A stretch of 64,000 bases of DNA from an uncultured Acidobacteriota bacterium (lineage in GTDB: Bacteria; Acidobacteriota; Terriglobia; UBA7540): positions 128,001 through 192,000 of the forward strand of contig CAWDSK010000006.1 in assembly GCA_963804995.1 (NCBI GenBank). Reading direction: 5' to 3'. Numbering within the stretch: the first letter of the stretch is position 1; every line of letters starts with the position of its first letter. A model generated the notes under the pieces. The model was given only the letters and a program-made list of their open reading frames with translations. It was not told the origin of the DNA and ran no database searches. This document shows positions 24,737 through 42,511 of this stretch, one piece after another. The position numbers and the translations under genes are program-made.

Positions 24737-24820
24737 GGCCGAAGGTCCGCCGATCTTAATGGTGGGCCGAAGGTCCGCCGATCTTAATGGTGGGCCGAAG
24801 GCCCGCCGATCTTAATGGTG
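24737..24820. repeat. 28-bp tandem repeat x3
   Basis: ggccgaaggtccgccgatcttaatggtg three times without spacers (one substitution). Confidence 0.92.
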
Positions 24821-25518
24821 GAGCAACACCCTGGGTCAACAGATTGGTTCCCGGCCCGAGCCCTGTAGAGCCTGCCCTGAGCAAAGCGAAGGGGGCGATC
24901 TAAGCAACCCCCTGAACCGCCCCACTGGCTGGAACGAACGGGCACGATGGTGAGTAGGGTTAGCGCGCCCCTTCAGGGCTTACCGATGGAAAGGCGTGGC
25001 TTCCTTGACCCAGGGCGTTGCCCTGGGCTTTGTTAGGACGCCCCGTTGGGGCTGGAAGGTAGCGGCGAGTTTACCTCGCCATTTTCCATGATCTCTCCGA
25101 GCTCGCGAACCGGAATCCGGCTGGCGCAGAGCGAGCTCAGCTCTGCGATTCACGTCCCTGCCCCTCCCCCCGAGGTTCCCGACCTCTAGATGCTCTTACA
25201 AGCCCAGCCACGTCCAGCCCCTGATTTTGTTATCGGAACGATTCGTCCGTCTTTACCATGGACCGGGTTGCTTAATCCACACTAAATCGCAGGGCTGTGC
25301 TCGCCCTGCGCCAACCTGCCAACTGACTTGATTTGCACAAAGTCGCAGAACTGGGCTCGTTCTGCGCCAGCCCGCCCCATACTGTAGTTCGTCCCCCATC
25401 GACAACAAAATGCTGTGGACCTGAACCCCAGGTCCGCGCAACGCTTGCTTTGCGGTAGTGTTCCAGCCCGTCAAAGGCCAAGGTGTGGCCACGGCGGTCA
25501 TTAAGCCAGACCCCCGGT

Positions 25519-26469
25519 TCAGCCCAACATCCGCCTTCGAAGAAAGTAAATAAACGCGCACAGCCAGAGAGTTCCAGCGGCCATACTGCACGCTAGCATT
25601 ACATGCCTCGCCCGTATGCCCAAGCCAACAAACTTCTGGTAGTCATGTTTGTTGATCTGCGTGCTCAGGGCAAAGGCAGGGTCTACTTCCAGCTTGTCTT
25701 CCAGCTTGTACATAAGTGCTTCGTGCCTCTTCACATGCCCCAGTGCACGCCTTTGAATCTTGTCCCAGGCAAGAGAGATTATGACGCCAACCAAGGCAAT
25801 GACAAGACCAACGTCCGGGTCATTGGGTAATTTGCCGGTCGTGAAGAGGGCGACCAAAAGAATTGCGTTCGCTGCCCAGAATGTGCCGAAGATACTCCAG
25901 AGCACCTGGTCTTCACTGGAGCGCAAACTGATAGCATTTGAGAGTTGGCCCCACTTCTCCTCCCGCGTGAGGCGCTTTCGCATGCGCCACGCGGATATTG
26001 CCTTGCTGTGCCCTCCCCCACATATATTGGGGGGAAGGTTCTCCAGACCAAAGTATGTGGGATTTGATCCGGGCTCACCCTCCTGCAAGGTACCCCCAAG
26101 AATGGTACACCTGTAAACAAGGAAGACTCCGCACCCTTTCGGATGGTCATCGAAAAAGAAAGCATCGAAAAGGCTGTCAACTGACACGACCAATCCCGTC
26201 TCTTCACGGACTTCCCGTACAACGGCCCGCGCTGGATCTTCGTCCGACTCCACATGCCCCGCTGGTAGGTTCCATTCCCCCTTGAAAGGTTCCGTGGTTC
26301 GGCATTGGAGCAGGAGGCGTCCATCCAGCTCTATTAGAGCCCCGGCTCCCACGATGAGTTGCTCATACTGAACCCAACCACACTCGGTACAGACGGCACG
26401 CTCCCTGCCCTCTATGTTTGTTCTTTGGAGCCGCGAGGCGCAGGCGATGCAAAACCTTCCGTTAGACAT
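25519..26469 (-). CDS. Zn-ribbon NUDIX hydrolase fused to a C-terminal multi-TM domain
   Basis: RFCIACA...VCTECG ribbon; Nudix box GHVESDEDPARAVVREVREETG; about three hydrophobic helices after residue ~185; GAGGAGG RBS. Confidence 0.85.
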   Translation of the reverse strand: MSNGRFCIACASRLQRTNIEGRERAVCTECGWVQYEQLIVGAGALIELDGRLLLQCRTTEPFKGEWNLPAGHVESDEDPARAVVREVREETGLVVSVDSLFDAFFFDDHPKGCGVFLVYRCTILGGTLQEGEPGSNPTYFGLENLPPNICGGGHSKAISAWRMRKRLTREEKWGQLSNAISLRSSEDQVLWSIFGTFWAANAILLVALFTTGKLPNDPDVGLVIALVGVIISLAWDKIQRRALGHVKRHEALMYKLEDKLEVDPAFALSTQINKHDYQKFVGLGIRARHVMLACSMAAGTLWLCAFIYFLRRRMLG

Positions 26470-26491
26470 GGTACATCCCCCTCCTCAAGCG

Positions 26492-26609
26492 GGTAGCCGC
26501 AGTCAGTGTCGTTCCGACTGTGGGTTCTTCCTTTGGTGAGGACTCTTCCGGTCAATAGCATCGGGCATGAGAAAAGCCCACGGTCATTAAAACGTTGACC
26601 GCGGCTACC
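26492..26609. repeat. GTAG-type REP doublet (inverted pair), site 1
   Basis: GGTAGCCGCAGTC...GACTGTGG arm and inverted CCACGGTCA...TGACCGCGGCTACC arm. Confidence 0.88.
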
Positions 26610-27885
26610 CCGCTGTCCCACTTGCGGATTCCGCAATCATGTCAACTACGCGCAACAAGCCTTCCGACGATGCCACCGCGAAACGATCAGAAAGCGTAGG
26701 CGAATACATCCGAACGTCCGCTGCTGTGACGTTGTGCCAGACGGGAAGAATGATTCTCTTCCCGCCCGATTCTCTGCTCACCAGCCCGTCAAGTTCCTTT
26801 TGTGGCCACTCCTTCGAGAAAAAGGCCGGGCTGAGTACGACAATCCCGAATCTAGAGGCAGATAGCCCTCGATCAATAGATCTCCTCAGACTATCCCCCA
26901 ATCGTAGTGTGTATTCATCGAACCAGACATGAAAGCCACGCTTTCGGAGGGCCTCTGCTAGCGGTCGGACAAAAGCCTCCTTGTCCTCAGTAGCATGGCA
27001 GATGAAGACATCCCATGTCTTATTGTCATTCTCTGGCCGGTGGTCAGACTCTTTCCCAGACTCGGAAAATTCGAATTTTCGAGCACATGCAAGCAACTCC
27101 CGACCAATGGAAGCAAATTCTTTGGCCTGGTCCAGCTGCAATTCAGATCGGGCCTCTAATATCTGTCCTGCCTGCCGCAATGAACTTACGGTCGTTCCGA
27201 GATAGGCTGCGTCCCACGGGTCAGCTATCCATGTGATGCTACTACTATCCCCGGCCTTGAAGGCGAGCCAGAACACCTTCTGCCTAAGGAAGTCGTCGAT
27301 CATTCGTCCGGTGCCATCAGTTGATGGACGAGTTCTTAGTTTGACCTCCTGAAGTTCTATTGGGTGTGCCTGTTGCGGGTAGAATTTCACCAATCCTGAG
27401 TCTACGGCCAAGCGAATCGAATTCACCACACACTCGTTTACGAGGAACGGGTCTGGCTTCAGATCAAACATGCTCTGCTGATGCGTGATAACTACATAAC
27501 AATACGCAAGGCGCCCGTCCCGAGAATCTGTAACTGCCACGCGAACGTAACTGGCCGCCCGATTCCTCAGAGGTTCCCAAGGCCATTCTATCTGTAATAG
27601 AAGTGGCACACTTGAGATGCAGAAGAAGCCTGGCGATTTGTTCCTAAATCTGCTCCCGAGGGCTCGGGCAAATCTGAGCGCTCCTTGCTGGTAAGCCTGC
27701 ATCGCAGGAAGGTCCGAAAGCGCTTCTCGAAGAAGGGAGAATCTCCATTCCTTGCCGTACCCGCGAGCAATGAAGATAAAGGCGAATCCCCCGGGGTTCG
27801 GCTCCGGGGCGGAAAGCTTTACAGTGCGCTCGCTCTCGAAGATCATGGCGAGACGTTCGATGCCCCGTTCTAGTTCTGTATCCAT
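26605..27885 (-). CDS. TIR-domain protein (C-terminal TIR_2, unknown N-terminus)
   Basis: WDVFICHATEDKEAFVRPLAEAL...VWFDE...GDSLRRSIDRGL...VVLSPAFFSKEWPQKELD...ILPVWH; likely start MDTELE at 27885. Confidence 0.9.
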   Translation of the reverse strand: MDTELERGIERLAMIFESERTVKLSAPEPNPGGFAFIFIARGYGKEWRFSLLREALSDLPAMQAYQQGALRFARALGSRFRNKSPGFFCISSVPLLLQIEWPWEPLRNRAASYVRVAVTDSRDGRLAYCYVVITHQQSMFDLKPDPFLVNECVVNSIRLAVDSGLVKFYPQQAHPIELQEVKLRTRPSTDGTGRMIDDFLRQKVFWLAFKAGDSSSITWIADPWDAAYLGTTVSSLRQAGQILEARSELQLDQAKEFASIGRELLACARKFEFSESGKESDHRPENDNKTWDVFICHATEDKEAFVRPLAEALRKRGFHVWFDEYTLRLGDSLRRSIDRGLSASRFGIVVLSPAFFSKEWPQKELDGLVSRESGGKRIILPVWHNVTAADVRMYSPTLSDRFAVASSEGLLRVVDMIAESASGTAG

Positions 27886-28003
27886 AACTAACCGAAAGGA
27901 GAATTCTCTGACTATATACACCCTGTGTGGGGGGAAGACAAGGGGCCCGAAGACAGTGAGAGCAAGCGCAGCGTGGACCTTTGCGGGGGTGCGGCAATTT
28001 GCT

Positions 28004-28077
28004 GTAGCGGCGGGTTTACCCCGCCACGCTGCCCGCGATCGCGTGGTATAAAATGGCGGGGTAAACCCGCCGCTACG
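28004..28077. repeat. GTAG-type REP doublet (GTAGCGGCGGGTTTACCCCGCCA family)
   Basis: Perfect inverted pair; single related copy at ~25059. Confidence 0.85.
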
Positions 28078-28567
28078 CTTGCTGTCCGTCCCCAGATCCA
28101 AATCCCGAATCCCTCGTCCCCCGCCCCCGCCGCGCCACACTCCCCCGTATCGTCTATCGGTGGGTTGGTAGCCGAACATGAGCCCAAAATGCACTGCGGG
28201 TTCGACAATCACCCAATCCCCGGATGCCTCAGTGAATCGATGACCCGATGGCTCGATGGCCCGATCACCGGATCTCCTGATCTCGCCATCGCCGGGCTAC
28301 ATCGCGCGCCAGGCGCCCGCAGCGGACAATGTGTCTGCCATTTTGCATTTTTGGGCTACTGGTAGCCCGAAGGTGCGTTTATCTTATTGACATAACCCAG
28401 TCCATTAAGAGCACAATAGAGGTGAGGATGCGTAGCTCCATGATGCGTCCAGGCAACCCTCGAAGGACGGCGGACCCCAATATTGGGGATCTGCCATGCC
28501 CTACCCTGAATGCTGGTTGTGTTTGCGAACATTTTTCTGTGTCTTCTGCGTTCCGAAGAGCTTTCAC

Positions 28568-29357
28568 GTCGAGTAGAGAGGAAGCGCACCACATGCTGAC
28601 CACGCCAGTCCAACGGATTACCGGGACGTGCACGCAGGGCACGCGTGTTTCTTCCTCCCCCTCTAAAATTCCGTACGGTGGGTTTTCCCCAGTACGGCTT
28701 CAAACGGGAATTCCTCCGCGACCTTCGTTCGCCCGGAGTGGCTTAAACCGACACCCCGCGCTCGCTTATACGCGGCCCAAGTTCCTATCTCCGAGAAGAG
28801 CCACGAGCCGTAGAGGGACTTTCGTCCAAGCGGCACTCCCCTCTTCTGACAGAACGCTCCCGTCCAGAGGTCCTTGGCTCGCCAGCGGGTTATATTGTCC
28901 CGCCGGGTCGTCGCTTACTATGACCTCATCCGAGACTCTCGACTCCTCCGGACCGGCTTATGACTTTGCCGCCCGGTGCTACCTGGGCCGAGAGGTTCCC
29001 CAATTTACTCCGCCTGTCTGTTCTCTCCGTGCCGTCTTCCGTACCCCGGCAGACCGAACGATTGCGCTTGGCTGTTTCTTCATCGTCCGCTTTGGCCTTC
29101 CCCATCTCTGTAGAGGGTCGGCATCTACAAACCCACGCGCTCCGGTTCCAGCGTGGCTGTGTAACGAGGCTGCAAAGTTCACTTTATGGTACGGCCCGGT
29201 AGAGTTGCTAGCCCCGCACCGGCCGGGGCGTTTACGTTCGAGCTTTCACCTCCTGAGTCGCCTCAAGCAGGCGTCGAATATAACTACGCGGGTAAATCAG
29301 CCAATTCCCGCGGCCGGACTTGCACCGGCAAGACAAGCAGCCTTATGGGCTGCAAAC
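28568..29357 (-). ncRNA. ORF-less group II intron (~790 nt)
   Basis: 5' GTTTGCAGCCCATAAGGCTGC; domain V AAGCCGTACTGGGGAAAACCCACCGTACGGAATT; domain VI ending CTCTCTACTCGAC; no RT ORF on the sense strand. Confidence 0.82.
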
Positions 29358-29704
29358 AGAGGTCACAGCGCAGCCGGGCCGCACCCCCAAAAGCATTTCA
29401 CCACGGAGGCCACAGAGGTCACGGAGAGTAGACGGAGAAAAAATTGCGGGTTAACACCCACGGAAGCGGGATCTCTACCGGCGCCATTAGAAGCGCTTTT
29501 CTCTGTGGTCTCCGTGCCCTCTGTGGTGGATCTTTTCTGCGCACGTCCTTGCTCAAGCGGACTGGGGTGTGTTTGGCGGCACGGGAGGCGGTCCAACTTG
29601 ATTGGCTATTACACCTCGCGAAGTCCGGCGCGTCACGAACCTGCTGCTGAGGATCAAACGCTATGAGCCTCAGATGGAAGCGTTAGAAAAAGCTGCGGCT
29701 CTCC

Positions 29705-30094
29705 ATGATGTGCAAGAAAAGAAATGGGTTAGCCATTGAGAGTAAGAATGTCTGAAATCTCTAACTCATTCAGATAGCGAGATTTATGCTGAAACATCGG
29801 GGCCAAGGCGAAAAAACGGGAGCGGCCCTCCATGATGTAATAGAAACAAAAGGAATTAGCCCTGATGAGCGAAAATTGCGCAAAAATCTATATTATTGAA
29901 ATTAAAATAGTTAGCTTGTCTTCGCTGGTCTGTGTCAAAAATGAAAGAGGGGGATCAAAAAATGACGCTGCCGTTCTGTAAGTCACTGAAAACACATGTA
30001 GAAAAAATGTCTGTTCTGCGCCTCTCCATGATGTTGATGAAAACACGCTAGTTAAAGCATTCTCTCCATTATGTTGATGAAAAGAAAGGGAGTT
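29705..30094. repeat. AT-rich array of GATGTTGATGAAAAC-like motifs (array 2)
   Basis: Copies near 29705, 29831, 30027, 30068 plus degenerate ones near 29890 and 29980. Confidence 0.75.
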
Positions 30095-30512
30095 GTTCGC
30101 CGGGATAAACCGGCAGGAAGCAGAGGCCAGTTGGCGCAGAGCCAGGATTTTTGGCTCTGCGTCTTGCACAGAACTTGAAATGAAATTATCAACGGGCCTA
30201 TCCAAATCCGAGCGTAAACGGGCGGCGAGAGCCATAAATCGCAGAGCTGAGCTCGCTCTGCGCCAGCCCGCCACCCGATGGTCAGTGGCCGCCGGCCCAC
30301 ACTCGCCCGCTTCGGTAATCGGCGGGGTCAGGTGAGAAGATGAATCAAATGCTGACATCGAAAATCGCAAATCACGAATCGCCATTCACAAATGAGCCGA
30401 TCTCCCGATCACCGGATCGCCCGATGGCCCGCTCTGCGCATACCTTGATTTGGCGTGGAGCCGCTACAAGTCTATACTGCTAGCCCGACCCGAAGTCGGA
30501 AAGGACTCTTAG

Positions 30513-31985
30513 ATGTTTTCTATTTCCCGGCGTGATCTTATGGCTTCCTTACTATTTCTTCCCGCGGCGCTCCGCGCTGAGAGTGATTGGATTCCTCTTT
30601 TCAACGGCCATTCGCTTGACGGTTGGAAAGCGGATGCTCACCCTCACTCGTTTCGCGTTGAAGACGGAAAGATTGTGGCGACGGGACCGCGCGCCCACCT
30701 GTTCTACACAGGCCAGGTAGAGAAAGCGAGCTTCAAGAACTTTGAGTTAAAGGTGGAAGTGCTGGCGCGGCCGGGAGCGTCCTCCGGCATTTACTTTCAC
30801 GCTCCGTTCCAATCGCACGGCGGGCCGGCCAAGGGCTTCAAGATTCAAATCGACAATGTCTATGCGGGTGAAGGCGATGACCGCGACCGCCGCAAAACCG
30901 GCTCGCTTTACGGCTGCCGCGACATATACAAATCGATGGTGAAAGACGACGAGTGGTTCGAGCTCCACGCCGTGGTGCGTGCGAATCAGGTGCAGATTTG
31001 GCTGAACGACACCCTGATTGTCGATTACATCGAGTCTGACCCACCCGTGCAGTCCGCCACTACTCCGGGAGACGCCTTTGACCGCGGCACCTTCGCGCTC
31101 GAATGCCACGACCCGCATTCCAAGGTCTATTTCCGGAACCTGCGCGTGAAGCCTTTGCCCGATGATCTGAAGACACCGAATGAGACTCGGCCGAAACCAG
31201 ACGAGGTTTACAGTGACCTGTTGCGCATGCATCAGGAGGGCTTTCCCGTGGTGGACTACCACACGCACTTGAAGGGCGGCCTGACGCTGGAAGAGGCGCT
31301 TGCTAACTCTCGCCGCCTGGGAATCATGTACGGAATCGCGGTGAACGGCGGGTTGGGATTTCCTACCACCACCGACGCCTCGCTGGAACCTTTCCTGGCC
31401 AGCATGAAAGGGCAGCCGTGTTTTGTGGCGTTGCAGGGCGAAGGCCGCGAGTGGGTAACGCTATTTTCGCGGGAGACCATCGCCAAGTTCGATTACGCCT
31501 TCACCGACGCCATGACCTGGACCGACGACCACGGCAAACGCATGCGGCTGTGGATTCCCGAGGAGGTAGGTGAAATCGCCGACAGTGAGAAGTTCATGGA
31601 AACGATGGTAGACCGCATCCTGGGAATTCTGAACCATGAGCCCATCGATATCCACGCCAATCCTACCTTCCTCCCCGATGTCCTCGCGCGCGACTATGAT
31701 CGTTTGTGGACACCGGAGCGGATGCAGAAAGTTATCAACGCCGCGAAGGCCAATGACATCGCGATCGAAATCAATAACCGCTACAAAATCCCCAGTGCGG
31801 CTTTTATCAAACTTGCCAAAAAGGCGGGCGTGAAATTCTCCTTTGGAACGAATAACGGCGACCGCAACCTGGGGCGGGACGAGTACGCGGTGGCCATGGT
31901 GAAAGAATGCGGGCTTACCTGGCAGGACATTTTCATTCCCAAACCAGAGGGCCAGAAGGCGGCACAGAGACGGAAAGCGGCGTGA
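30513..31985 (+). CDS. DUF1080 (3-keto-disaccharide hydrolase-like) plus PHP-like domain fusion, Tat signal
   Basis: SRRDL signal; LFNGHSLDGW, FKNFELK, SGIYFH, ALECHDP..VYFRNLRVK; then DYHTH, IEIN, FSFGTN. Confidence 0.82.
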   Translation: MFSISRRDLMASLLFLPAALRAESDWIPLFNGHSLDGWKADAHPHSFRVEDGKIVATGPRAHLFYTGQVEKASFKNFELKVEVLARPGASSGIYFHAPFQSHGGPAKGFKIQIDNVYAGEGDDRDRRKTGSLYGCRDIYKSMVKDDEWFELHAVVRANQVQIWLNDTLIVDYIESDPPVQSATTPGDAFDRGTFALECHDPHSKVYFRNLRVKPLPDDLKTPNETRPKPDEVYSDLLRMHQEGFPVVDYHTHLKGGLTLEEALANSRRLGIMYGIAVNGGLGFPTTTDASLEPFLASMKGQPCFVALQGEGREWVTLFSRETIAKFDYAFTDAMTWTDDHGKRMRLWIPEEVGEIADSEKFMETMVDRILGILNHEPIDIHANPTFLPDVLARDYDRLWTPERMQKVINAAKANDIAIEINNRYKIPSAAFIKLAKKAGVKFSFGTNNGDRNLGRDEYAVAMVKECGLTWQDIFIPKPEGQKAAQRRKAA

Positions 31986-32034
31986 AGGGGCGGGCCGCGA
32001 GGGTGGGTTCGAATTCGTCCCGTTCCGGCGGTCA

Positions 32035-33189
32035 CTAGGTGCGAACGTCGCGGTGACGTTCCGCGACGATAGTCACCTGCATGTCGCGCGCGTGGCGAAC
32101 GATGCGGTGGATTAGATTTCTCCCCAGGAAACCCTCCCAGGGCGAATACTGCGGGCGCACCATGAAGATCTGTGTGATGTCGTGAAGGCGAGCAAATCCG
32201 AGGAGTGTAGTGGCGATGTCCACGCCTTGAAGCACTCGGGTTTCAATGTGAAGGTTTCGCGCGAAAGTGAGGTGCCGCTCCACGGCCTCTCGTTTCGGCA
32301 CCGGCAAGCTACTGAAATCCATTTCGGAGTGAATGAACACCGCGAAGCACTCCGCCTGGAGATAATCGGCCACTCTGCGGCCGCGACGGATAAGCATGGC
32401 GGTAGACGCGTCCTCCGTCACGTATACGAGGAGGCGATCGTTAAAAGGCCCAGGAGAACTGATTTCCGTGTCAGACGTCTCAGTCGGAGCCGCGGGGGTT
32501 TCAAGGGTGGGATCGGGAAGCGCCACTTGGCGGATCTCGACCTCGTGGGCGGTTTGGCGCAAGGCGATTTCACGTAAAGCCACCAGGGTGGATTCCTTGA
32601 AGAAGTTCTGCATCGCCCGCTGGGCTTTTTCCGGAGGATAGACGACGCCGCGCTCCAGCCGGTTGAGGAGCGCCCGCGGCGTGAGGTCGACCATGACCAC
32701 TTCCTCCGCCTGCTTCATGACCCAATCCGGAATCGTCTCGCGAACTCGCACCCCGGTCATATTCCAGACCTGATCATTCAAGCTCTCGAGGTGCTGGATG
32801 TTCATGGTGGTCATCACATCGATTCCAGCCTCCAGCAGTTCCAGGACGTTTTCCCAGCGCTTTACGTGACTGCAACCTGGCACGTTGGTGTGCGGCAGTT
32901 CGTCCACGACACACACCTGGGGGTGCCGAGCGAGAATCGCCTGCGTGTTCATCTCCTCGAAGACAGACCCGCGATATTCTATTTTGCAACGTGGAATCAA
33001 CTCCAGCCCTTGAGCTTGCGCAATCGTATCGGTGCGCCCGTGGGGCTCGAGGTATCCGATCACTACGTCGACGCCCTTCTTCACCAGCTCATGAGCGTCG
33101 GTGAGCATCTGGTAGGTCTTTCCGACACCTGCGGCGTATCCCAGGTAAACCTTGAGCCGGCCGTGTTGTGGAGCACTCGTATCCATCAT
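32035..33189 (-). CDS. kdpD: KdpD N-terminal (KdpD domain + USP) protein without TM or histidine-kinase part, copy 1
   Basis: GRLKVYLGYAAGVGKTY, EPHGR, VVDELPHTN, TTMNIQHLESLND, VRETIPD, LREIALR; USP-like C-terminus. Confidence 0.88.
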   Translation of the reverse strand: MMDTSAPQHGRLKVYLGYAAGVGKTYQMLTDAHELVKKGVDVVIGYLEPHGRTDTIAQAQGLELIPRCKIEYRGSVFEEMNTQAILARHPQVCVVDELPHTNVPGCSHVKRWENVLELLEAGIDVMTTMNIQHLESLNDQVWNMTGVRVRETIPDWVMKQAEEVVMVDLTPRALLNRLERGVVYPPEKAQRAMQNFFKESTLVALREIALRQTAHEVEIRQVALPDPTLETPAAPTETSDTEISSPGPFNDRLLVYVTEDASTAMLIRRGRRVADYLQAECFAVFIHSEMDFSSLPVPKREAVERHLTFARNLHIETRVLQGVDIATTLLGFARLHDITQIFMVRPQYSPWEGFLGRNLIHRIVRHARDMQVTIVAERHRDVRT

Positions 33190-33308
33190 GTGTTCGCGTA
33201 GGGAACAGGAGGTAGGGAACAGGGAATAGGGAACAGCGCCCATTCCCAACTCCAAATCCCAACGTCCGAATCCCTAAATCCCCACTCCTTACTTCCCAAT
33301 TCCCAGCT

Positions 33309-34412
33309 TCAATGCGGAAACACCCGCACGTCGATCCCTTCCGCAGCGCGAATCAGCCGATCCAGGGGGCCACCCAGGAAGCGATCCCACCAATGTTCCC
33401 GGCTGGGGTGACCCAAGAATATCTGCGTAATCCTGTGGGTGCGGGCAAAATCCATCAGAGTTTCAACGGGGTCATCTCCGTCCAGGGCAGCGGTTTCCGC
33501 TCCCAGGAGCCGCGCACTTGCCAGGCGCTCTTCGAGGAGGGCTTCATCCTTCTCGCTTAACCGGTCATGGCGAACATAGACGGTGAAAAGTTCCCCGTGA
33601 AACCGGTCGACGTTGCGCCTTCCGCTGGCGATCATGGCTTGGGCATTGGAGGCGGGAGTGAGGCACACCAGGATGCGTTCCTGCGTCCCCCAAAGTTGCT
33701 CAATACCATGAGCAAGCAAATAACCCTCAAGCTGCTTATCCACCACCTCCGCGGCCAGAAGCAGGGCGATCTCGCGCAGCTCGGAGAGCCGCCGCGGGGC
33801 GTCCGCTGCAGACGGATCAGCCGTGGTCGGTTGCCCGGCGCGTTCCAGCAGAAGTTCGGGCGGGACATCGACGATAACGATCTCGTCGGCGGCATAGAGA
33901 AACCGCTCCGGGACCGTCTCCTTGACGCGTTTGCCGGTGATTCTCTCGACGTCTTCGCCGCGCTCTTCAATATGCTGGAGGTTGAGGGCGGTAATAACGA
34001 TGATTCCAGCCGCCAGCAGTTCTTCCACGTCCTGCCAACGCTTGGGGTTCTTGCTGCCAGGAGGATTGTCGTAAGCGACGCCGTCCACAAGACAAACCTG
34101 GGGGCGTCGGCGGAGGATGGCCTCCACATCCATCGCCTCTCCATCCCCGATTTTCTTGAGGGGAATGACTTCCAACGTCTCAACCAGTCGCTCGAGGTCG
34201 GGGGTCAAGTGCGGCTGGATGGCGCCAATCACTACATCTTGGCCTCGCGCGCGGCGCCGCCGGCCTTCATCCAGCATCCGAAATGATTTACCCACTCCTG
34301 AGGCATACCCCAGGAAGACCTTTAAGCGCTCATGCTGAAGTTGTTCGCCCTGCGCGTCCAATTGTTTGAGGAGTAGCTCAGGATCAGGTCGACGGTCGTA
34401 ATCGTTCTGCAT
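33309..34412 (-). CDS. kdpD: KdpD N-terminal (KdpD domain + USP) protein, copy 2, divergent
   Basis: RPDPELLL, LKVFLGYASGVGKS, LVDGVAYDN, KRWQDVEELL, LREIAL, ERILVCL. Confidence 0.85.
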   Translation of the reverse strand: MQNDYDRRPDPELLLKQLDAQGEQLQHERLKVFLGYASGVGKSFRMLDEGRRRRARGQDVVIGAIQPHLTPDLERLVETLEVIPLKKIGDGEAMDVEAILRRRPQVCLVDGVAYDNPPGSKNPKRWQDVEELLAAGIIVITALNLQHIEERGEDVERITGKRVKETVPERFLYAADEIVIVDVPPELLLERAGQPTTADPSAADAPRRLSELREIALLLAAEVVDKQLEGYLLAHGIEQLWGTQERILVCLTPASNAQAMIASGRRNVDRFHGELFTVYVRHDRLSEKDEALLEERLASARLLGAETAALDGDDPVETLMDFARTHRITQIFLGHPSREHWWDRFLGGPLDRLIRAAEGIDVRVFPH

Positions 34413-34776
34413 AGGCGCGAATGCCTCTCAGAAGAAGTGTACTATTGAGGCCAATTGCTAACAAGGTCTGTGCGAGTTTACTTGCGGGTCAGTGTCTCCA
34501 GTTTTCGGACAGGCGTATTGCATTCCTCCTCTTGCGCAGCAGGTAACAAACGCGGACTGGAAAGCTTAGCACGGCAGAATCGCATGTGAAAAGTCATAGG
34601 AAAATAACGCATGAAGGTGGGGAAGTAAGTGGGACCTCGCTCGCTATGCCCCGCGGAGAGCAACATGTGGGACAAGTTCCACCATGACAAAAAGTCGCGG
34701 GCCTGCAAGAATAGCGACGGGAGATCGCAGACCCCAAAAGACGGGGGTCTGCGCCAGCCCCGATGATGGGGTGTGG

Positions 34777-35202
34777 CTACCTGTTGCCCTTTTGCCTTCT
34801 GCGCATTTCCGCAAACTGTTTTTCTTCCAACTGGCCGGCGGGACATTGTGGGTCGTGGATAAACTTGCCCATGATGCTTCCTTCTTCCAGGCAGACGGTG
34901 CATTCCATGCGGTAGCTCTCCCCGCCGTCGTCTGCGGGCAGCATGCGGTAAGGGTTTTCCAGCCTGAACTGGCGCATCTTTCTAATCTCACGCCAAGTAC
35001 CGAGGCGGCTCCAGGCTTTGACTTTACGATTACGATACGCTCCGCCCGTCCATATTCGGTGCAACCAGAATAATGGCGCGAGAGGGATCGCGACCAGGAA
35101 CGTAGGTATGAAAGCCAGCCGCCCCCAGCTTTGGCCTTTGCTGCGAGCCCTATCGGCAATCGCCGTGAGGGCTAACCAAGTTCGCTTTTTGGCGTCCATC
35201 AT
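34777..35202 (-). CDS. Hypothetical protein (hydrophobic N-terminus, CxxC...H-x3-C possible Zn site)
   Basis: GAGGT RBS; 141 aa; stop TAG lies within a GTAGCCAC motif. Confidence 0.55.
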   Translation of the reverse strand: MMDAKKRTWLALTAIADRARSKGQSWGRLAFIPTFLVAIPLAPLFWLHRIWTGGAYRNRKVKAWSRLGTWREIRKMRQFRLENPYRMLPADDGGESYRMECTVCLEEGSIMGKFIHDPQCPAGQLEEKQFAEMRRRQKGNR

Positions 35203-35234
35203 GAATCCGGATACCTCACCACGGAGCGGATGTC

Positions 35235-35386
35235 GGTAGCCACGGTCAGCGCTGTTCTGACGGTGGGTTCTTTCGTAGAAACCGGAGGCCTAACCGTCAG
35301 GAAGAGTTGAACCCGGCACCTGTCGGCCGCTGGGGTATCGGGCATGAGAAAAGCCCACGGTCAGAACGGCACTGACCGTGGCTACC
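35235..35386. repeat. GTAG-type REP doublet, site 2 (same family as 26492-26609)
   Basis: GGTAGCCACGGTCAG...CTGACGGTGG and CCACGGTCAG...CTGACCGTGGCTACC; 27-nt ATCGGGCATGAGAAAAGCCCACGGTCA identical to site 1. Confidence 0.88.
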
Positions 35387-35681
35387 CCCCCGTCTCTTCT
35401 TGCTCAATCGTGACGCTGCGACCGTCCGGAAAGTGAATCCAGACACACAGAATATGAAGAACGGGTATGCGCGCATGCACGCCATTGCGGAAAAAGTATT
35501 CGGTGCATCCGGTCACCACTTTGACTGCTCCCCCGTCAAACCAATGGTCGAATTCGCCTGGGAGATCTCCGGGCAGTGGTCGGTTACGCAAATTGCGCGC
35601 GCCATGAATCATTTCGAGCACCTCGGCAACTTCATGCTCATCGACGCGCCGCCGGAATAGCTCCGTGGGGTCCTGAGTCAT
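35382..35681 (-). CDS. Hypothetical protein
   Basis: GGAGGAG RBS; 99 aa; stop TAG lies within the REP GTAG. Confidence 0.6.
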   Translation of the reverse strand: MTQDPTELFRRRVDEHEVAEVLEMIHGARNLRNRPLPGDLPGEFDHWFDGGAVKVVTGCTEYFFRNGVHARIPVLHILCVWIHFPDGRSVTIEQEETGG

Positions 35682-35737
35682 AGATCATTCTCCTCCATTA
35701 CCCTTGCTTTCATAGGAGGTAGCCACGCTGGCTGGCG

Positions 35738-37650
35738 GTTGCGGTAGGGATACCGGTTACCCGGTACCCCCCGCACGGATCCGTACGTGCGCTGGTTAGC
35801 GCATACGGCTCTTATCTCGGATGTGTGGCGGCGAACCGTTGGGATGGCCAAGGATGCACAACGTGCGGAGCAGGCAACCAGCAGGCCGCAAGCTTCCCCA
35901 GTCGGTCCCAGTTGAGGCGGTGGCGTTGACTGCGTTGACGCAGTTGTGTTCGCCACAGTCGGGTCAACCGTTCCCGAAAGATTCGCAGGCGGTCGAGGTT
36001 TCCCGGTACCGCGTGATAGTTGAAGTAGCCTTGCACGACCGACCGGAGCCATTTACCCGTATCCGCGATGGGATCGTGCCGACGCTGCCGGAGTTGTTGC
36101 TTGAGTTCCTGCAACTTCCCCCGCAGGCGCTTGCTGATCGTCTTCCGCTTCACGGTAAATTGCCCCCTCCGGTTCTTCCCGCTGATATGCGTGAAGCCCA
36201 GAAAGTCGAACGTCTCCGGCTTACCTTCTCCTCTCCGTTTCCGGTAAAGTTCGGCAAACGGCCCGAACTCGATCCGGCGCGTTTTGTCAGGATGCAGTTC
36301 CAATCCAAACTTCCCCACCCGCTCCCGGAAATCCTCCAGAAAGCGGTCGGCTTCCGTCTGCGATTGGAATCCAAGGACCGTATCGTCGGCATACCGCACC
36401 ACGACCACGTCTCCCCGGGCGTGCTTCTTGCGCCACGCCTGCACCCACAGGTCAAAGACGTAGTGCAGATAGATATTCGCCAGCAGGGGCGAGACCACCG
36501 CCCCTTGTGGCGTACCCATCTCCGTCTCCGACCATTCGCCTTCCTCCCTCACCCCGGCTTTCAGCCATTTCTGGATGAGCCGGAGAATCCGGGGGTCGGC
36601 GACGCGATGCTGCACGAACTTGAGCATCCATTCGTGGGATATCGAATCGAAAAATCCACGAATGTCCGCGTCAAGAACGTAGTTCACGTGCTTCACCGTG
36701 AGCGCGTACGAGAGCGCGTCCAGCGCTTGATGCTGGCTGCATCCCGGTCGAAAGCCATACGAGAAGCCCAGAAAGTCTTCCTCGTAAATCGCATTGAGGA
36801 TGGTGACCACGGCCTGTTGGACGATCTTGTCCTCCAGTGCCGCAACCCCCAACGGACGTTGCCGCCCGTCGCCTTTCGGGATATACGCCCTTCGCGAGGG
36901 CTTCGCTCGGAATGCTCCGCGGTGGACCCGGCTGTGCAGATCGACGAGTCGACCTTCCAGCCCGCTTTCATACTCCTGCCACGTCATGCCGTCTACTCCC
37001 GGTGCAGCTTTTCGCTTCAAGGCGTAAAAGCTTTCCCGCAGCAGATCGACCGTTAAGTGGTGGAGCAAGGCCGTGAACTTCATCTCCCTGTGTTCCTTCG
37101 CGGCTTTCCGCACACCCGCGAGTCCCTGGGACACGCGTGCCCCGCTCTGTGTCGGGTGCGTGTTAGGCCAACGGGTGTTCTCCTTGATCAGCGGCCTTCC
37201 CTCCTCATTCTCCGCCAACGGCTTCCCGTCTTTGTTCAAATGATTCATCGGTACTGTTCCGCTGTCCGACTCCTCGAAAGCGTGCAGGCGGGCTGTACGG
37301 CCATCGCCTTTTCCCGCCGTCCGGCCACGATCTACGGCGGCCGGCGCCTCCGAGGTCTCCCGGTTCTCGTGCAGAAAGTGTCTAGGCGTGTCTGGGGTCT
37401 ACGACTACGCAGGACTGTGCCGGAACTCGCGTTGGCGTCCCGGCCTCATGTTGCCTTCCGTTTAGTCTGAAAACGTCGGCGTCCTGATTGGACATTTTCG
37501 AAGCTCAATACCCAGCCCACCTATTCCCCTGTTTACGCTTCACCGTGCGCCTCACGACGCCCAGCGCAAAACTCGGGGCCGAGTGGATCGCTGCTCCTTC
37601 CTCGTGAGAAATTTTCATTCTCTGCTTTCTGCCGGTTTATCCCGGCGCAC
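35738..37650 (-). mobile_element. Group II intron, full length (~1.9 kb)
   Basis: 5' GTGCGCCGGGATAAACCGGC; domain V GAGCCGTATGCGCTAACCAGCGCACGTACGGATC; 3' CCCTACCGCAAC; removing it restores the repeat GGGGTCTG|CGCCAGC. Confidence 0.93.
35812..37248 (-). CDS. ltrA: Group II intron reverse transcriptase/maturase, no endonuclease domain
   Basis: APGVDG, YIPKGDGRQRPLG, FSYGFRP, DADIRGFFD, GTPQG, RYADD, FDFLGF; ends after domain X. Confidence 0.96.
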   Translation of the reverse strand: MNHLNKDGKPLAENEEGRPLIKENTRWPNTHPTQSGARVSQGLAGVRKAAKEHREMKFTALLHHLTVDLLRESFYALKRKAAPGVDGMTWQEYESGLEGRLVDLHSRVHRGAFRAKPSRRAYIPKGDGRQRPLGVAALEDKIVQQAVVTILNAIYEEDFLGFSYGFRPGCSQHQALDALSYALTVKHVNYVLDADIRGFFDSISHEWMLKFVQHRVADPRILRLIQKWLKAGVREEGEWSETEMGTPQGAVVSPLLANIYLHYVFDLWVQAWRKKHARGDVVVVRYADDTVLGFQSQTEADRFLEDFRERVGKFGLELHPDKTRRIEFGPFAELYRKRRGEGKPETFDFLGFTHISGKNRRGQFTVKRKTISKRLRGKLQELKQQLRQRRHDPIADTGKWLRSVVQGYFNYHAVPGNLDRLRIFRERLTRLWRTQLRQRSQRHRLNWDRLGKLAACWLPAPHVVHPWPSQRFAATHPR

Positions 37651-37734
37651 CAGACCCCCGCCTTTTGGGGTCTGCGTTCTCCCGCAGGGATTCTCCTCGG
37701 TCTCGGGATTACCTTAGAGTATACTCCCCGCGCC

Positions 37735-38010
37735 ATGCCTCTCTACAAGCGTACCTGGTGCCGAAAGATGCTCACGCGTCTGCAGTTGCCTCCCAGCGTC
37801 CATGATGAATCACACTATCGGCTCTGGCAGCGCCGGTTCTACCCTTTCAGTGTTTTTACTGAAAAGAAACGCCAGGAAAAATTGAAGTACATGCACAACA
37901 ATCCCGTGAAGCGCGGGCTGGTCAGTTCCCCGGAAAATTGGCCGTGGTCGAGCTGGAGATTTTACTTCTTGCAGGATACGTCGATCCTCAGGATGGACAG
38001 GTTGGGTTGA
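37735..38010 (+). pseudogene. Internally deleted REP-associated tyrosine transposase (RAYT / Y1 HUH family)
   Basis: LWQRRFY...YMHNNPVKRGLV..PENWPWSS C-terminus fused directly to MPLYKR; HUH region missing; flanked by inverted GCAGACCCC...GGGGTCTGCG REPs (37651-37690, 38030-38076). Confidence 0.8.
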
Positions 38011-38083
38011 GCCCTGAGTTCTATGAAATCCCTTGCGGGAGATCGCAGACCCCAAAGGGCAGGGGTCTGCGCCAGCCACTCGC

Positions 38084-39505
38084 TTAAAGCAATACCGCGG
38101 CTGCAAAGGTCCGGCCGGCGTTCATCAAAAAGTGCTCGACGATGGGGCCCACGGCGAAGGCGGGCAGGAAGGTCAGCGCGGCCACAATGATGATGGTGCC
38201 GACCAGGAGCAGTGAAAACTGTAGATCGTGGGTCGGCATCGTCCCACTGGTTACGGGCGTCTTGGGCTTGAGGGCCAGGCTGCCGGCGATGGCCAGCACC
38301 GGGATGATGATCAAGAACCGCCCGGCCAGCATCGCCAATCCCAGCGTGAGGTTGTACCAGGGAGTATTGGCATTGAGCCCGGCAAAGGAACTTCCGTTGT
38401 TCCCCGTGGCGCTCGCATAGGCATATAAGATTTCGCTGAATCCGTGGGGACCGCGGTTGGCAAGGTTGGCGGTGGGCGCTCCGGGTGGGTTCAGGTAGGA
38501 GGCAGGGCGAAATCCCATCAGGGTGCTCGCAGCCGCCATGAGCAGGATACAGGCGGAGCAGGCGATCATGGCCAGCATCACCATCTTCATCTCCCGCGCC
38601 ATGATTTTCTTTCCCAGGTATTCAGGGGTTCGGCCCACCATCAGCCCACCCACAAATACGGCCACCAGGGTGATGAGCAGCATTCCGTACAAACCCGACC
38701 CCGGCCCGCCGAAGATCACCTCACCACACTTCATGTTGAACATCTGAACCAGCCCGCTGAGCGGCGTGTAGCTGTCGTGCATGCTGTTGACCGCTCCCGA
38801 ACTCGTGGCGGTACTCACCACGGAAAAGAGGGCTGAACCCGCAATCCCAAAGCGCACTTCCTTGCCTTCAAAATTGCCGCCGGGATTCGTGGCGCTCGCG
38901 GATGGGTCCACACCCTGCTGCCCCAGGAGCGGATTGCCACGTTGCTCCATCGAGTAGGCAATTATGCTTCCGGCCGCCAGCAGGCTGAACATTACGAAAA
39001 ACAGCGCCCAGCCCTGACGGCGGTCGCGCACCATTCGGCCGAACGTGTGAGTCAGCCCGGCGGGAATCGCCAGGATCAGGAGCATCTCCAAAAAGTTCGT
39101 AAAGGGAGTGGGATTCTCAAAGGGGTGGGCGGAACTGGCATTGAAGAACCCCCCTCCATCGGAACTGAGGAGCTTGATCGACTCCTGGGAAGCGACCGGG
39201 CCCCCCGGAATCATCTGCGCACCGCCCTCCAGCGTTTCGAAAGTCTGCCAGCGTTGCAGAATGTAGAAGAGGAGGAAATTCCAGAGGCCAAAGGCCAGGC
39301 ACGCGGCGGCATACTGGGTCCAGCGCTGCTCTCTTTCTCTTATGCCCGCCAGCTTGTATATAAGATTTTCGAGGGGCAATAATAAGGGCGAGAGCCAAGT
39401 GCGCCGGCCTTCAAAAACCCGCGCCATGTAAGCGCCCAGGGGCTTGGTGATGACCAGTAGCAACAGGAAGAAGAAGAGCAACTGTGCCAGGCCAATCTGA
39501 TTCAT
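38084..39505 (-). CDS. kdpA: Second KdpA paralogue with an in-frame deletion of ~130 aa
   Basis: [48 protein letters not shown]; 473 aa versus 604 aa for the upstream copy. Confidence 0.85.
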   Translation of the reverse strand: MNQIGLAQLLFFFLLLLVITKPLGAYMARVFEGRRTWLSPLLLPLENLIYKLAGIREREQRWTQYAAACLAFGLWNFLLFYILQRWQTFETLEGGAQMIPGGPVASQESIKLLSSDGGGFFNASSAHPFENPTPFTNFLEMLLILAIPAGLTHTFGRMVRDRRQGWALFFVMFSLLAAGSIIAYSMEQRGNPLLGQQGVDPSASATNPGGNFEGKEVRFGIAGSALFSVVSTATSSGAVNSMHDSYTPLSGLVQMFNMKCGEVIFGGPGSGLYGMLLITLVAVFVGGLMVGRTPEYLGKKIMAREMKMVMLAMIACSACILLMAAASTLMGFRPASYLNPPGAPTANLANRGPHGFSEILYAYASATGNNGSSFAGLNANTPWYNLTLGLAMLAGRFLIIIPVLAIAGSLALKPKTPVTSGTMPTHDLQFSLLLVGTIIIVAALTFLPAFAVGPIVEHFLMNAGRTFAAAVLL

Positions 39506-39686
39506 GGCGGGTTGTCTCACCTCAAGGCTTGCTAAAGAGAACGAAAAATTGGGCCTGCCGCTAGCACAAATTCTTCGTGACAGGTTTGGAAGGGCAGGGC
39601 TAAACAGGTTGCGGAAAAAGCCGTTGGAGCTGCCATTATCAACACCACCCCTTCATCTCCTGCTCAGCACCAACCCTTTATCTTGT

Positions 39687-40048
39687 CAGCACCACCCCGG
39701 CGCTCGGCGCGCCACCCCTCCTGATTTAGGAGGGGTGGCGCCGGAGGTGACGGGGTGGTTATTCGAATCCGCCGGGCGGCGTGAGGCAACCATCAGCACC
39801 ACCCCGGCGCTCGGCGCGCCACCCCTCCTCATCTGAGGAGGGGAGTGTTTTTCAGAACTCCCCTCCTGATTTAGGAGGGGTGGCGCCGGAGGTGACGGGG
39901 TGGTTATTCGATCCGCCGGGCGGCGTGAGGCAACCATCAGCACCACCCCGGCGCTCGGCGCGCCACCCCTCCTCATCTGAGGAGGGGAGTTCTGGAACAA
40001 CTTCCCTCCTGATTTCCGTGGCGCCTTGGGTGACGGGGTGGTTATTCG
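39687..40048. repeat. Three tandem copies of a ~110-145-bp palindromic repeat
   Basis: cagcaccaccccggcgctcggcgcgccacccctcct at 39687, 39794 and 39938. Confidence 0.9.
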
Positions 40049-40083
40049 CATTGCGGTGTTTTCAGCAGCCTGTAGAGTCCCGC

Positions 40084-42168
40084 TTAGAATTTAACCAGGA
40101 TATCGATATCGACGATGTTCTCCGTCCTGCGAAGATCCGGATACCAGACGCCGACTGCGCCGCATCCCCCGATGGTTGGGGACGGCGTGCCGTCGTTGCA
40201 GGCGTATTGGCTGGGGAAACCGTTATTGGTACCCGAAGGAGGTGTAATCCCTCCTGAACCTGACCAATACGGTACATTCGCGTGGCGATGATCAAACTCC
40301 CACCGGAACGTGATGTACTGCTTGGGCATCCAGTCAAAAGTGATGGAACCGTCCCAGGCTTTGAACGGGTCCCCGGGATTCTCCGTAAAGTAAGGTGAAT
40401 TGAGGGCTGCGGAAGCGGCTGATTCTCCATTGATGGGCGGGAGCAACACCAGATAGCGTCCCGGATTGTTGATCTGGCCGCCCCCGAGCGTCAGCGCATA
40501 CAAGTCCTTTTTGAACCAGAACCGGTTGTAGAGCATATAGCCGACGAAACTCTGCTTGGGACCGTTCACTGTATTGCCATGGCAACTCACACCACCGCCA
40601 AATTCGCAACCCAGATCACCGGTGAAGGTGAACGCCATCTTGTCCAGGGTTTTGAGCGGCTTGTCGTAGTATTTGACCTCCACGCTGTCGTCAGTGTGGA
40701 TGCGGCCGCGGTTTGGTATATACAGATCATCGTGGCCCAGGGTGTAATTGTTGGAAATGATGTTCATCCAAGGTTTGGGAGTCCATTTAATCTGCCCTCC
40801 CAGGCCGGGCCGGTGGTTGGCTGAGCCGTACGCCTGCCACCCATTGGTGAACCATGGCTCAATTTTCAGGTGCGCCGTGGGGAAAATCTGGATGCGCACG
40901 CCATTGAAGAACCACGGTGTGTTGGAGGAAACGTACGAAGGTTGGTAGGCCCAATTGTCGAAGTTGTAGTAGCTGAAGAGGCCGACATAGGACATGAAAA
41001 TTCCGGCATCAACGTTAATCCCGTGCAGAACATCGAAATGGTATCCCCCGTAAGCCTCCGAAACGTAGCGGTAAGCATTGGCGAGATCCCATTGACCGTT
41101 GGCGGGGCTCGGGTCATTGCGCGGGGTGGTTACGGAATACATGCCAAACTGGGTCATCAAGCGGGCGCGAACGTTGTCATAGTGAAAGTCGCCGCCCACG
41201 CCGAGCTGCTCCACCTGGACTTCATTGGAGCGGAAGATTTCACTCGACCCGCCCATCGAGTGGTCTTTGGGATGGTTGAAATCGGAGGTATAGGTAATGT
41301 CAGCTCGGATCTCGGGCGTAAAGAATTTCGAGTCCCAGTAAATATCTTTGGTGCGGGGGTTGCCGTTCAGCCAGCTCCAGTCGGCGTCTGAAAAGGGTTC
41401 CACCTTTTTGGGTTTCTCGGGGGTCGTCTCCTGCGAGGGCATAACCGCAGCCCCGACCGCAGGGGAAGCGGTGGGCGGAGTGGCGGCCAGTGGCGTCACG
41501 GCGATGGGCGTGAGTAAAGGCGCCTTGGGCTTTTCTGGCGGCTTCGAGCCTGCAGTTCCTTCCAGCGAAGCTACAAGTATGGGCGCGGCTGGGGAAGCAG
41601 GCGGGTTGACGCCTTTCTCCGGTGCAGCGACAGGGGAGGGCTGGGTCGAGATTGATGCCTGGGTGGCCGGCTTAGCTTCCTTGGCTTCCAAAACCGCCAG
41701 GCGTTGCTCCAATTGGTTGAGCCGATCGAGCAATTGCCTTTCCCGCGCGGTCAGGGGTTCATTGCCCGGGTTGTCGGTTAGCGGATTTGCAGGTGTGTCA
41801 GCGGTGCGAGCCGAAACAGTCGATCCCTTGGGACCCGTCGGAACCCGGAGAGCGAGGTCAATCAGAACGCTCTGCTGTGCCGCCAGTTCGACGGTGGTCA
41901 CAGGGGAGCTTCCGAATCCCTCTTTACTTGCCGTCAATTGGTAATGCCCCGGTTTGAGATTCGCAACCAGGAAAGCTCCACGGTCATTGCTGACGAGGCT
42001 ACGCTCGTTGTTCTCGTCCAGACTGCGCACCACGACTTGCACTCCCGGCAACGGCAATCCGGCGTCGCCGCGTGTAACCCCCTGGAGCCCGCCGAGCCTC
42101 GATTGGCCGAATGCCAGAGATGATGAAAGTGCTACCATCAATGCGCAAAGGCTGCTGATTCTCACCAT
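40084..42168 (-). CDS. Outer-membrane beta-barrel protein (BBP2/DUF1597-like) with N-terminal carboxypeptidase-regulatory-like domain
   Basis: GGAGG RBS, signal peptide, G..LPGVQV...G.F....LKPGHYQLTASKEGF, Pro/Ala linker, DAGIFMSYVG, C-terminal Phe. Confidence 0.8.
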   Translation of the reverse strand: MVRISSLCALMVALSSSLAFGQSRLGGLQGVTRGDAGLPLPGVQVVVRSLDENNERSLVSNDRGAFLVANLKPGHYQLTASKEGFGSSPVTTVELAAQQSVLIDLALRVPTGPKGSTVSARTADTPANPLTDNPGNEPLTARERQLLDRLNQLEQRLAVLEAKEAKPATQASISTQPSPVAAPEKGVNPPASPAAPILVASLEGTAGSKPPEKPKAPLLTPIAVTPLAATPPTASPAVGAAVMPSQETTPEKPKKVEPFSDADWSWLNGNPRTKDIYWDSKFFTPEIRADITYTSDFNHPKDHSMGGSSEIFRSNEVQVEQLGVGGDFHYDNVRARLMTQFGMYSVTTPRNDPSPANGQWDLANAYRYVSEAYGGYHFDVLHGINVDAGIFMSYVGLFSYYNFDNWAYQPSYVSSNTPWFFNGVRIQIFPTAHLKIEPWFTNGWQAYGSANHRPGLGGQIKWTPKPWMNIISNNYTLGHDDLYIPNRGRIHTDDSVEVKYYDKPLKTLDKMAFTFTGDLGCEFGGGVSCHGNTVNGPKQSFVGYMLYNRFWFKKDLYALTLGGGQINNPGRYLVLLPPINGESAASAALNSPYFTENPGDPFKAWDGSITFDWMPKQYITFRWEFDHRHANVPYWSGSGGITPPSGTNNGFPSQYACNDGTPSPTIGGCGAVGVWYPDLRRTENIVDIDILVKF

Positions 42169-42292
42169 GGAAATAACCTCCCTGTGTAAATCCGCAAGCT
42201 TCTGGTGATCCCCCAAGCCCTTCTTAGTCAGGATACAAAACTCCACATCAAGAACGTCTAAATGGGCTGGTGTCTCAGTTTGAATCTCCATC

Positions 42293-42511
42293 TTAGAGTT
42301 TTTCCCGAACGAACTCGACCAGGACGTACCCGATGAGCGCGGCCATCACAGCAATTACAAAATTCTCCGTGGTAAAAATATCTCCGATAGCCCAAATCAA
42401 GCCCATTTTCTGCCCCATACCTGAGCGGCCAAATTCCCCCATCAAAAGATTGGAGTAAAACAGGAATATAATGAAACCTGCCTCGATTATCGCACGCCAA
42501 GCCTTTTTCAT
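42293..42511 (-). CDS. Small two-TM membrane protein
   Basis: MKKAWRAIIEAGFIIFLFYSNLLMGEF...LIGYVLVEFVREKL. Confidence 0.7.
   Translation of the reverse strand: MKKAWRAIIEAGFIIFLFYSNLLMGEFGRSGMGQKMGLIWAIGDIFTTENFVIAVMAALIGYVLVEFVREKL

Follow-up and report, generated by a model that had tools for sequence, protein, structure and literature searches.

Deletion derivatives of a REP-RAYT-REP unit border accessory gene modules in an Acidobacteriota genus

What joins small accessory genes to one another at a locus where gene ends coincide with palindromic repeats? The question is raised by a window of 64,000 nucleotides (nt) from an uncultured Acidobacteriota bacterium (assembly GCA_963804995.1, contig CAWDSK010000006.1, positions 128,001 to 192,000; coordinates below count from the first letter of this window), in which four minus-strand genes lie among inverted doublets of a repetitive extragenic palindromic (REP) sequence with the ends GGTAGCC and GGCTACC. 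The original prediction, made from this DNA alone, read the locus as an integron-like array of gene cassettes captured by a REP-associated tyrosine transposase (RAYT). In integrons, small accessory genes or toxin-antitoxin modules stand in arrays between folding attC sites, with the integrase IntI and an attI platform. Here we trace the origin of the junction sites and of the genes between them.

Anatomy of the junction sites

All coordinates of the original prediction, for stops, starts, doublets and a degenerate repeat head, were verified on the sequence. The TAG of the motif GGTAGCC(A/G)C is the stop codon of three minus-strand open reading frames (ORFs; 26605-27885, 35382-35681 and 34777-35202), the starts of three genes (26469, 35202 and 35681) are separated from the inverse motif by 23, 33 and 37 nt, and the two doublets at 26492-26609 and 35235-35386 have 27 identical nt in common. 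Judged by alignment, these junction doublets are internally deleted copies (MITEs, for miniature inverted-repeat transposable elements) of a REP-RAYT-REP unit, and not attC sites. Both align to the two ends of intact units found elsewhere in the genus (loci L161 and L170), and the 27 nt that they share correspond to the last codons of the RAYT, its stop codon and the right REP arm. Both also fold as hairpins (z ~ -3.5; ~ -3.6 for the first).

The arms of this repeat family, here called family A, consist of a GTAG tetranucleotide followed by a hairpin. The source genome (G000; 7.55 Mb, 92% complete) contains 193 such arms in 127 elements, 48 of which start with a plus arm and end with a minus arm to form an inverted doublet. 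RAYT coding sequence or the RAYT stop tail is kept in 36 of these 48 doublets, and both the start and the end of the RAYT gene are present in longer members of the family. The exact arm pattern occurred in 15 of 18 congeners and in 0 of 12 more distant genomes searched, and a family-A arm was present in two named Acidobacteriota records, which, with an Acido-Lenti-1 match in the window, agrees with a probably acidobacterial source.

Two further occurrences of family-A arms were recorded. One is in two viral contigs (L193 and L194, 3001-3031), where the arm lies just before a gene, with no array. The other involves an insertion element with a 346-amino-acid (aa) ORF, present in G000 as four identical copies (C6:1340126-1341166, C6:541079-542119, C6:2029475-2030515 and C3:1258498-1259538); each copy lies ~80-100 nt from a family-A arm, at an identical spot inside the arm in three aligned copies.

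A cognate RAYT in related genomes

A search with the RAYT sequence taken from the long G000 elements led to 30 loci, and the intact enzyme flanked by the junction REP family that the original prediction called for was found as a 169-aa RAYT in three congeners (G037, G007 and G038). The RAYT is flanked by its own REP family at loci L161, L164, L170 and L185, and all four RAYTs scanned (4/4) scored above the NF047646 cut-off; further copies lacked the left end (G003) or were frameshifted (G013). This cognate RAYT with the same REP ends places the junction sites in a RAYT system, as had been proposed. Intact family-A RAYT units have unrelated flanks in different congeners, as do two 94% identical RAYT units of a second repeat family, family B, within G000, and these RAYT units therefore appear mobile. 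The pattern is not that of an immobile, vertically inherited (domesticated) RAYT. A carrier search gave no plasmid match for the unit.

Two other RAYT genes were considered and set aside. The remnant at 37.7 kb of the window, at first a candidate for the cognate enzyme, is bounded by family-B REPs, and the caveat that its REPs belong to a different family proved justified, since an intact relative at G000 C6:722276 is also flanked by family-B REPs. The RAYT beside a family-A doublet at C2:467478 was rejected on the same ground, having family-B REPs at its borders. Across G000, REP-like families number a dozen or more; Y1 transposases gave 14 matches, and several of these have their own REP family on the flanks.

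Toxin-antitoxin arrays and modules shared between species

Family-A elements are clustered in G000, with 25 of 119 gaps measuring 0.5-2.5 kb where 3.9 were expected. Toxin genes of the PIN, ParE and PemK types lay within 800 bp of family A in 18 of 96 cases, compared with 74 of 1291 small genes (3.3-fold, p=2e-5); matches in G000 numbered 59 for PIN, 30 for ParE and 9 for PemK. At 20 hand-picked, cluster-rich G000 loci many of the neighbouring genes are toxin-antitoxin modules (144 of the 205 called genes were scanned). In the arrays at C6:1495-1499 kb and C1:653-661 kb, a repeat composite stands at nearly every junction, often 0-12 nt from a stop codon, and the modules have promoter-like boxes and mixed orientations. 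The site of the C6 array is a gap of 270-400 bp in 4 of 5 congeners, and similar arrays with other module combinations stand at other chromosomal sites at 20 congener loci (106 of 136 array genes scanned). In several genomes (L057:9516-9951, L080, L081 and L091) repeat composites contain one and the same 3' piece of a higA antitoxin gene.

Single modules were 85-99% identical at the nucleotide level between species and had different neighbours, while core DNA was 73-79% identical to that of G000. DNA searches recovered single modules from many congeners and returned no whole arrays. Between G000 and G013, a mazE-PIN module together with the composite upstream of it shows 96% identity; the figure for a ParDE module and its repeats in G013 and G001 is 97%, and the copies of either module stand at different loci. 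Among 50 copies of 12 modules, REPs stood on both sides of 14 of the 30 copies at >=88% identity and of 4 of the remaining 20. For comparison, small genes of G000 had REPs on both sides in 50 of 1291 cases and long genes at the module loci in 4 of 79, a contrast that is overstated because the loci were retrieved with repeat-containing queries and the kin are not independent. The idea of a gene-capture array held in that the repeats mark arrays of modules moved between genomes; precise cassette ends are not the rule.

Cargo genes of the window

The cargo of the window had been called defence-like, and sequence comparison upheld this and showed the cargo to be strain-specific: the TIR and NUDIX-8xMP proteins are defence-like by domain content, and homologues are rare or absent in 28 congeners. 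No homologue of the NUDIX gene, of the 141-aa gene or of the 99-aa gene was found in those 28 genomes, and the TIR gene has one full-length homologue there. The NUDIX gene encodes a Zn-ribbon NUDIX domain fused to an 8xMP membrane domain (Pfam PF00293, PF14803 and PF24838), and the two homologues found (L186 and L187) are both REP-flanked (2/2) and have other neighbours. At L186 a full homologue (64%) has a different upstream gene; it is preceded by a REP remnant and followed, within ~100 nt, by the head and arm of family A. The L187 homologue is partial.

PADLOC matches of the TIR protein to PDC-S66 and ThsB are limited to its TIR part. Most close family members are 424-436 aa long, and the closest (80%) has 435 aa. 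Truncation by a whole domain was rejected, as 426 aa is about the full family length, and a minority, such as the G035 copy, is longer. The MITE at this junction supplies the last codons and the stop of the gene; the closest homologues are 9 aa longer, so it replaced a non-conserved tail.

The 141-aa protein had no match in Pfam, NCBIfam or PADLOC. Alignment of 12 database matches gave a conserved NPYRMLPxDDGGESYRMEC...CxxC core, and distant homologues stop near the same place on stop codons of their own. The invariant residues NPYRMLPxDDGGESYRMECxxC...HxxxC of this family may bind metal. The 99-aa protein has one non-self homologue (P0002), 82% identical and of equal length, and the 141-aa protein likewise has one close homologue of its own length (P0003, 88%); one contig encodes both homologues. 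A promoter scan found none on the minus strand for the window genes. That the window blocks belong to the same module-moving process as the arrays is likely, on the strength of a single full homologue with REP flanks, of strain specificity and of how the junctions are built.

Module ends and how modules may move

The original prediction took a precise, promoterless CTACC-ORF-GGTAG cassette as the rule, and this was not borne out: ends vary, and the array modules have promoter-like boxes and lie in both orientations. Breakpoints in cross-genome module comparisons were mostly imprecise. Counted by end, REP-head breakpoints made up 20 of 202 at 5' ends (10.9 expected) and 21 of 198 at 3' ends (14.4 expected), and the ends of shared segments peaked at the outer end of the element, at +4 to +7 nt (24 of 400, partly by construction). 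REP families that differ from one another adjoin a single promoter at CTAC; some junctions contain gene fragments, and some joins fall in the middle of a gene. The breakpoint counts gave a weak signal at best for a crossover fixed on either the REP head or the CT dinucleotide.

We infer that the RAYT itself moves modules, and the explanation that we favor, at about even confidence, is imprecise RAYT-driven capture and reshuffling of flanking genes. A RAYT, either the cognate enzyme missing from the G000 assembly or a cross-acting paralogue, would bind the REP hairpin on single-stranded DNA, cut between C and T in the inverse arm or further off, and link what it has excised to a different site that has a REP. 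With single strands cleaved and transferred in this way, a module would have one end close to or at a REP and a second end that can vary, and round after round would pare away neutral sequence until a promoter or stop codon was reached. The accumulation of toxin-antitoxin and defence-like genes would follow from their resistance to loss, and the TAG stops would be by-products of junctions in dispensable gene tails and not a designed cassette core. According to passages of PMC3333891 and PMC8266576, the Escherichia coli enzyme TnpA(REP) cuts in vitro between C and T in the inverse REP, and also >400 nt from a bacterial interspersed mosaic element (BIME), and transfers strands; its authors predicted the capture of whole genes or fragments in 2012 (PMC3333891, in the part consulted). 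These cutting properties fit modules with one repeat end and one variable end, CTAC joins between unrelated REP families, and trimmed modules.

Several results weigh against this explanation. No intact cognate RAYT was found in the 92% complete G000 assembly, only fragments. Unique breakpoints fell within 10 nt of a REP head in 41 of 400 cases, where 25 were expected; a looser motif set gave no enrichment at 3' ends (34 of 151 against 39), and CT at breakpoints (39 of 135 against 24%) was not clearly enriched. One module present in 7 genomes showed homology only from its -35 box to its stop, with REPs on both sides in 0/7, and the flanking contrast reported above is overstated. For the most part family-A elements stand between ordinary genes, whose orientations match those at control gaps (69/27/31, p=0.36). 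Families E and I are similarly enriched near toxins (family E at 9 of 96), family D is also clustered (12/72), and 40 of the 96 toxins lie near none of the 13 REP motif families tested. In the window, two signs of simple insertion named beforehand were partly seen: the closest TIR homologues extend past the TAG, and a REP was present at 0/20 distant homologues of the 141-aa gene. The evidence for recent movement comes from other modules and not from close DNA copies of the window's own.

The main rival is homologous recombination. In this scheme the RAYT only spreads MITEs, and it is host recombination between composites of 130-460 bp that cuts modules out, integrates them and swaps them. Identity between composites is 85-96%, whether in one genome or across genomes, shared segments frequently take in an entire composite, with their ends at its outer terminus or within an arm, and neither a fixed cut site nor an intact RAYT in G000 speaks for the enzyme. 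The joins of unrelated REP families at one promoter, together with the gene fragments, are not readily explained by homologous recombination, which also leaves open how junctions arise in mid-gene and how modules are first placed at REP-less sites; at 127-152 bp the window doublets are short for exchange by homology. We regard recombination as the sole mover of modules as fairly unlikely. RAYT capture and recombination can act together.

A second rival is ordinary behavior of REP doublets (REPINs), in which MITEs insert where they are tolerated, genes arrive by other means and both pile up in permissive regions. Here TAG stops would arise when an insertion hits a dispensable tail, and the longer TIR homologues, the REP-free relatives of the 141-aa gene and the toxin association common to several repeat families all agree with this. 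So do the genome-wide tests, which rest on our own approximate gene calls. The expected enrichment of stops in GTAG did not appear: of 174 outer arms, 122 had an intact GTAG, and in these the arm TAG ended an ORF of at least 100 aa 3 times (other frames, 3 and 2) and an ORF of at least 60 aa 14 times (other frames, 9 and 8; p=0.12). Starts within 45 nt of the arm, the second proposed signature, were not enriched either (8/81, 13.6 expected). On the earlier caveat that REPs often lie near stop codons anyway, stops within 15 nt were mildly enriched (17/89 against 9.4 expected, p=0.016). In its cited passages PMC3733652 reports that GTAG termini of REPs often provide a TAG stop; given this report and the lack of a genome-wide rule, the stop signature of the window is local and already known. 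Against mere co-location stand the repeat-plus-gene units that keep 96-97% identity from one species to another, at loci that differ and with other neighbors on both sides, the C1 and C6 arrays, where almost all junctions hold one composite, and the REPs at both NUDIX homologues elsewhere. On balance we think this reading unlikely.

Identity of the junctions with attC sites of an integron, or of an integrase-less cassette cluster, is very improbable: co-oriented accessory genes, hairpin folding and stops overlapping palindromic sites would suit it, but the sites are RAYT derivatives, no IntI reached the cut-off in the 92% complete G000 (TIGR02249, best 77.9 bits against 265), and the RYYYAAC/GTTRRRY core pair was missing from the first junction and present in the second only as an internal pair 18 nt apart, not at its ends.

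The RAYT-driven capture favored here has a stronger version, in which mobile RAYTs and their MITEs form an integrase-free gene-cassette system: its HUH nuclease would release repeat-plus-gene units in single-stranded form and place them at other REPs, and so assemble and reorder arrays of toxin-antitoxin and defence modules, with the modules passing between species. We hold this version to be possible, on the doubtful side.

Relation to described systems

Like integron cassettes, the arrays string together small accessory genes and toxin-antitoxin modules, with folding sites and stops at the site. Unlike integrons, the window and the arrays are without IntI and attC cores, the modules have promoter-like boxes, mixed orientation and imprecise ends, and there is no fixed platform, the arrays standing at different loci in each genome.

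GTAG-plus-hairpin arms, inverted doublets and an HUH/Y1 RAYT flanked by its own REPs are shared with REP, BIME and REPIN-RAYT systems as described in parts of PMC3333891, PMC8266576, PMC3116915, PMC5581495, PMC6006769 and bioRxiv 10.1101/2021.07.10.451892. Within the passages concerned, the kind described is domesticated, non-transposing and vertically inherited (PMC3333891, PMC5581495, bioRxiv 10.1101/2021.07.10.451892), and capture of flanking genes is noted at a few loci (PMC3333891). In contrast, the doublets found here are deletion derivatives of a whole unit, RAYT units stand at differing loci, and repeat-plus-gene modules are common to several species and stacked in toxin-antitoxin arrays. 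The sites themselves are members of the REP/REPIN-RAYT family.

The pdif/dif modules of Acinetobacter, as partial sources present them, are likewise accessory modules between short sites, shuffled between replicons; those sites are XerC/XerD sites recombined site-specifically, whereas REP MITEs serve here (XerC/XerD sites were not searched for). One-ended capture by IS91, ISCR and Helitron elements, and MITE-flanked units such as the integron mobilization unit (IMU), resemble the present case, in the cited parts of PMC3333891 and PMC3184786, in HUH-type capture of neighboring genes, a variable end, and non-autonomous ends that mobilize cargo in trans. They differ from the 169-aa Y1 RAYT, REP hairpin ends and multi-module chromosomal arrays described here. 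The full-text literature searched, which held few subscription papers and no supplements (Figure S7 of PMC3333891, on captured genes, included), gave no account of REP-delimited toxin-antitoxin arrays.

Why RAYT transposases and REPs persist is an open question, and the cited passages leave their spread in vivo without explanation. Natural test material is at hand in the genus: intact enzymes and their exact ends, derivatives that arose by deletion, sites both empty and filled, and shared modules. If the RAYT is the mover, REP systems would join integrons and dif modules as builders of accessory arrays, and if a cassette system exists, RAYTs would gain a host-level function. If the RAYT is not the mover, the genus would still be a clear case of REPs organizing toxin-antitoxin islands.

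Layout of the window locus

The original prediction saw four co-oriented minus-strand genes in two blocks and read them as a gene-capture array. The common orientation stands; a single array does not, since the two blocks are 6.9 kb apart with core-like genes, a hydrolase gene and two kdpD-type genes, between them (Table 1). The motif is also present at 34781 and 35718, as claimed, with no full arms there, only a 9-nt GGTAGCCAC head joined to another REP family. Such joins number 5 in G000, 3 of them in the window region. An arm of the second MITE forms a terminator-like hairpin on the minus strand. The second block lies within an 8.4-kb insert (34.4-42.8 kb) between a probable kdpC (not profile-scanned) and kdpD; of 15 congener loci, 11 showed both genes, and in these the gap between them is 0.2-2.1 kb, without the window cargo.

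Table 1. Repeats, genes and other elements at the two blocks of the window
Feature	Coordinates	Strand	Remarks
Copy, with internal deletion, of another REP-RAYT-REP unit, that of family B (GGCTGGCGCAGA head)	25119..25326	+	both ends match ends of intact RAYT units at G000 C2:467478 and C3:777557
Further family-B arm	25339-25382		
Degenerate family-A head GTGGCCACACC	25483..25493	-	~25 nt after NUDIX stop; from sequence
NUDIX-8xMP gene, 316 aa	25519..26469	-	Pfam
MITE-A 1	26488..26614	+	REPs at left and right of a deleted RAYT that retains its last codons and stop; both ends (AG...CT) intact
TIR-domain gene, 426 aa	26605..27885	-	Pfam TIR_2
REP doublet, third family (GTAGCGGCG head)	28004..28076	.	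~115 nt upstream of TIR start
Residual GGTAGCCAC head joined to family-B REP	34718..34781	-	supplies stop of 141-aa ORF
141-aa ORF	34777..35202	-	conserved core, no named family
MITE-A 2	35235..35386	+	RAYT tail codons kept; supplies stop of 99-aa ORF
99-aa ORF	35382..35681	-	no named function
Residual GGTAGCCAC head joined to family-B REP head, the latter split by the intron	35718..35737	+	
Group II intron with reverse transcriptase (35812-37248), inside family-B REP	35738..37650	-	Rfam RF02005, TIGR04416
Family-B REP, RAYT 3' remnant (37735-38010), family-B REP	37651..38077	+	NF047646 partial match

Other features of the region were recorded. The kdpC-kdpD site is empty in congeners or holds other inserts. 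In the window, 38084-42511, between the same two genes, contains a second kdpA-like gene, a gene for an outer-membrane-like protein of 694-735 aa and a 72-aa ORF. The group II intron at 35738-37650, incidental to the finding, has ~40 copies in the genome by k-mer counts, and a second intron remnant lies at ~28330-29400. Tandem 8-nt units containing GATC form two short arrays, at 28214-28294 and 30382-30454, and 28-nt tandem repeats occupy 24737-24820.

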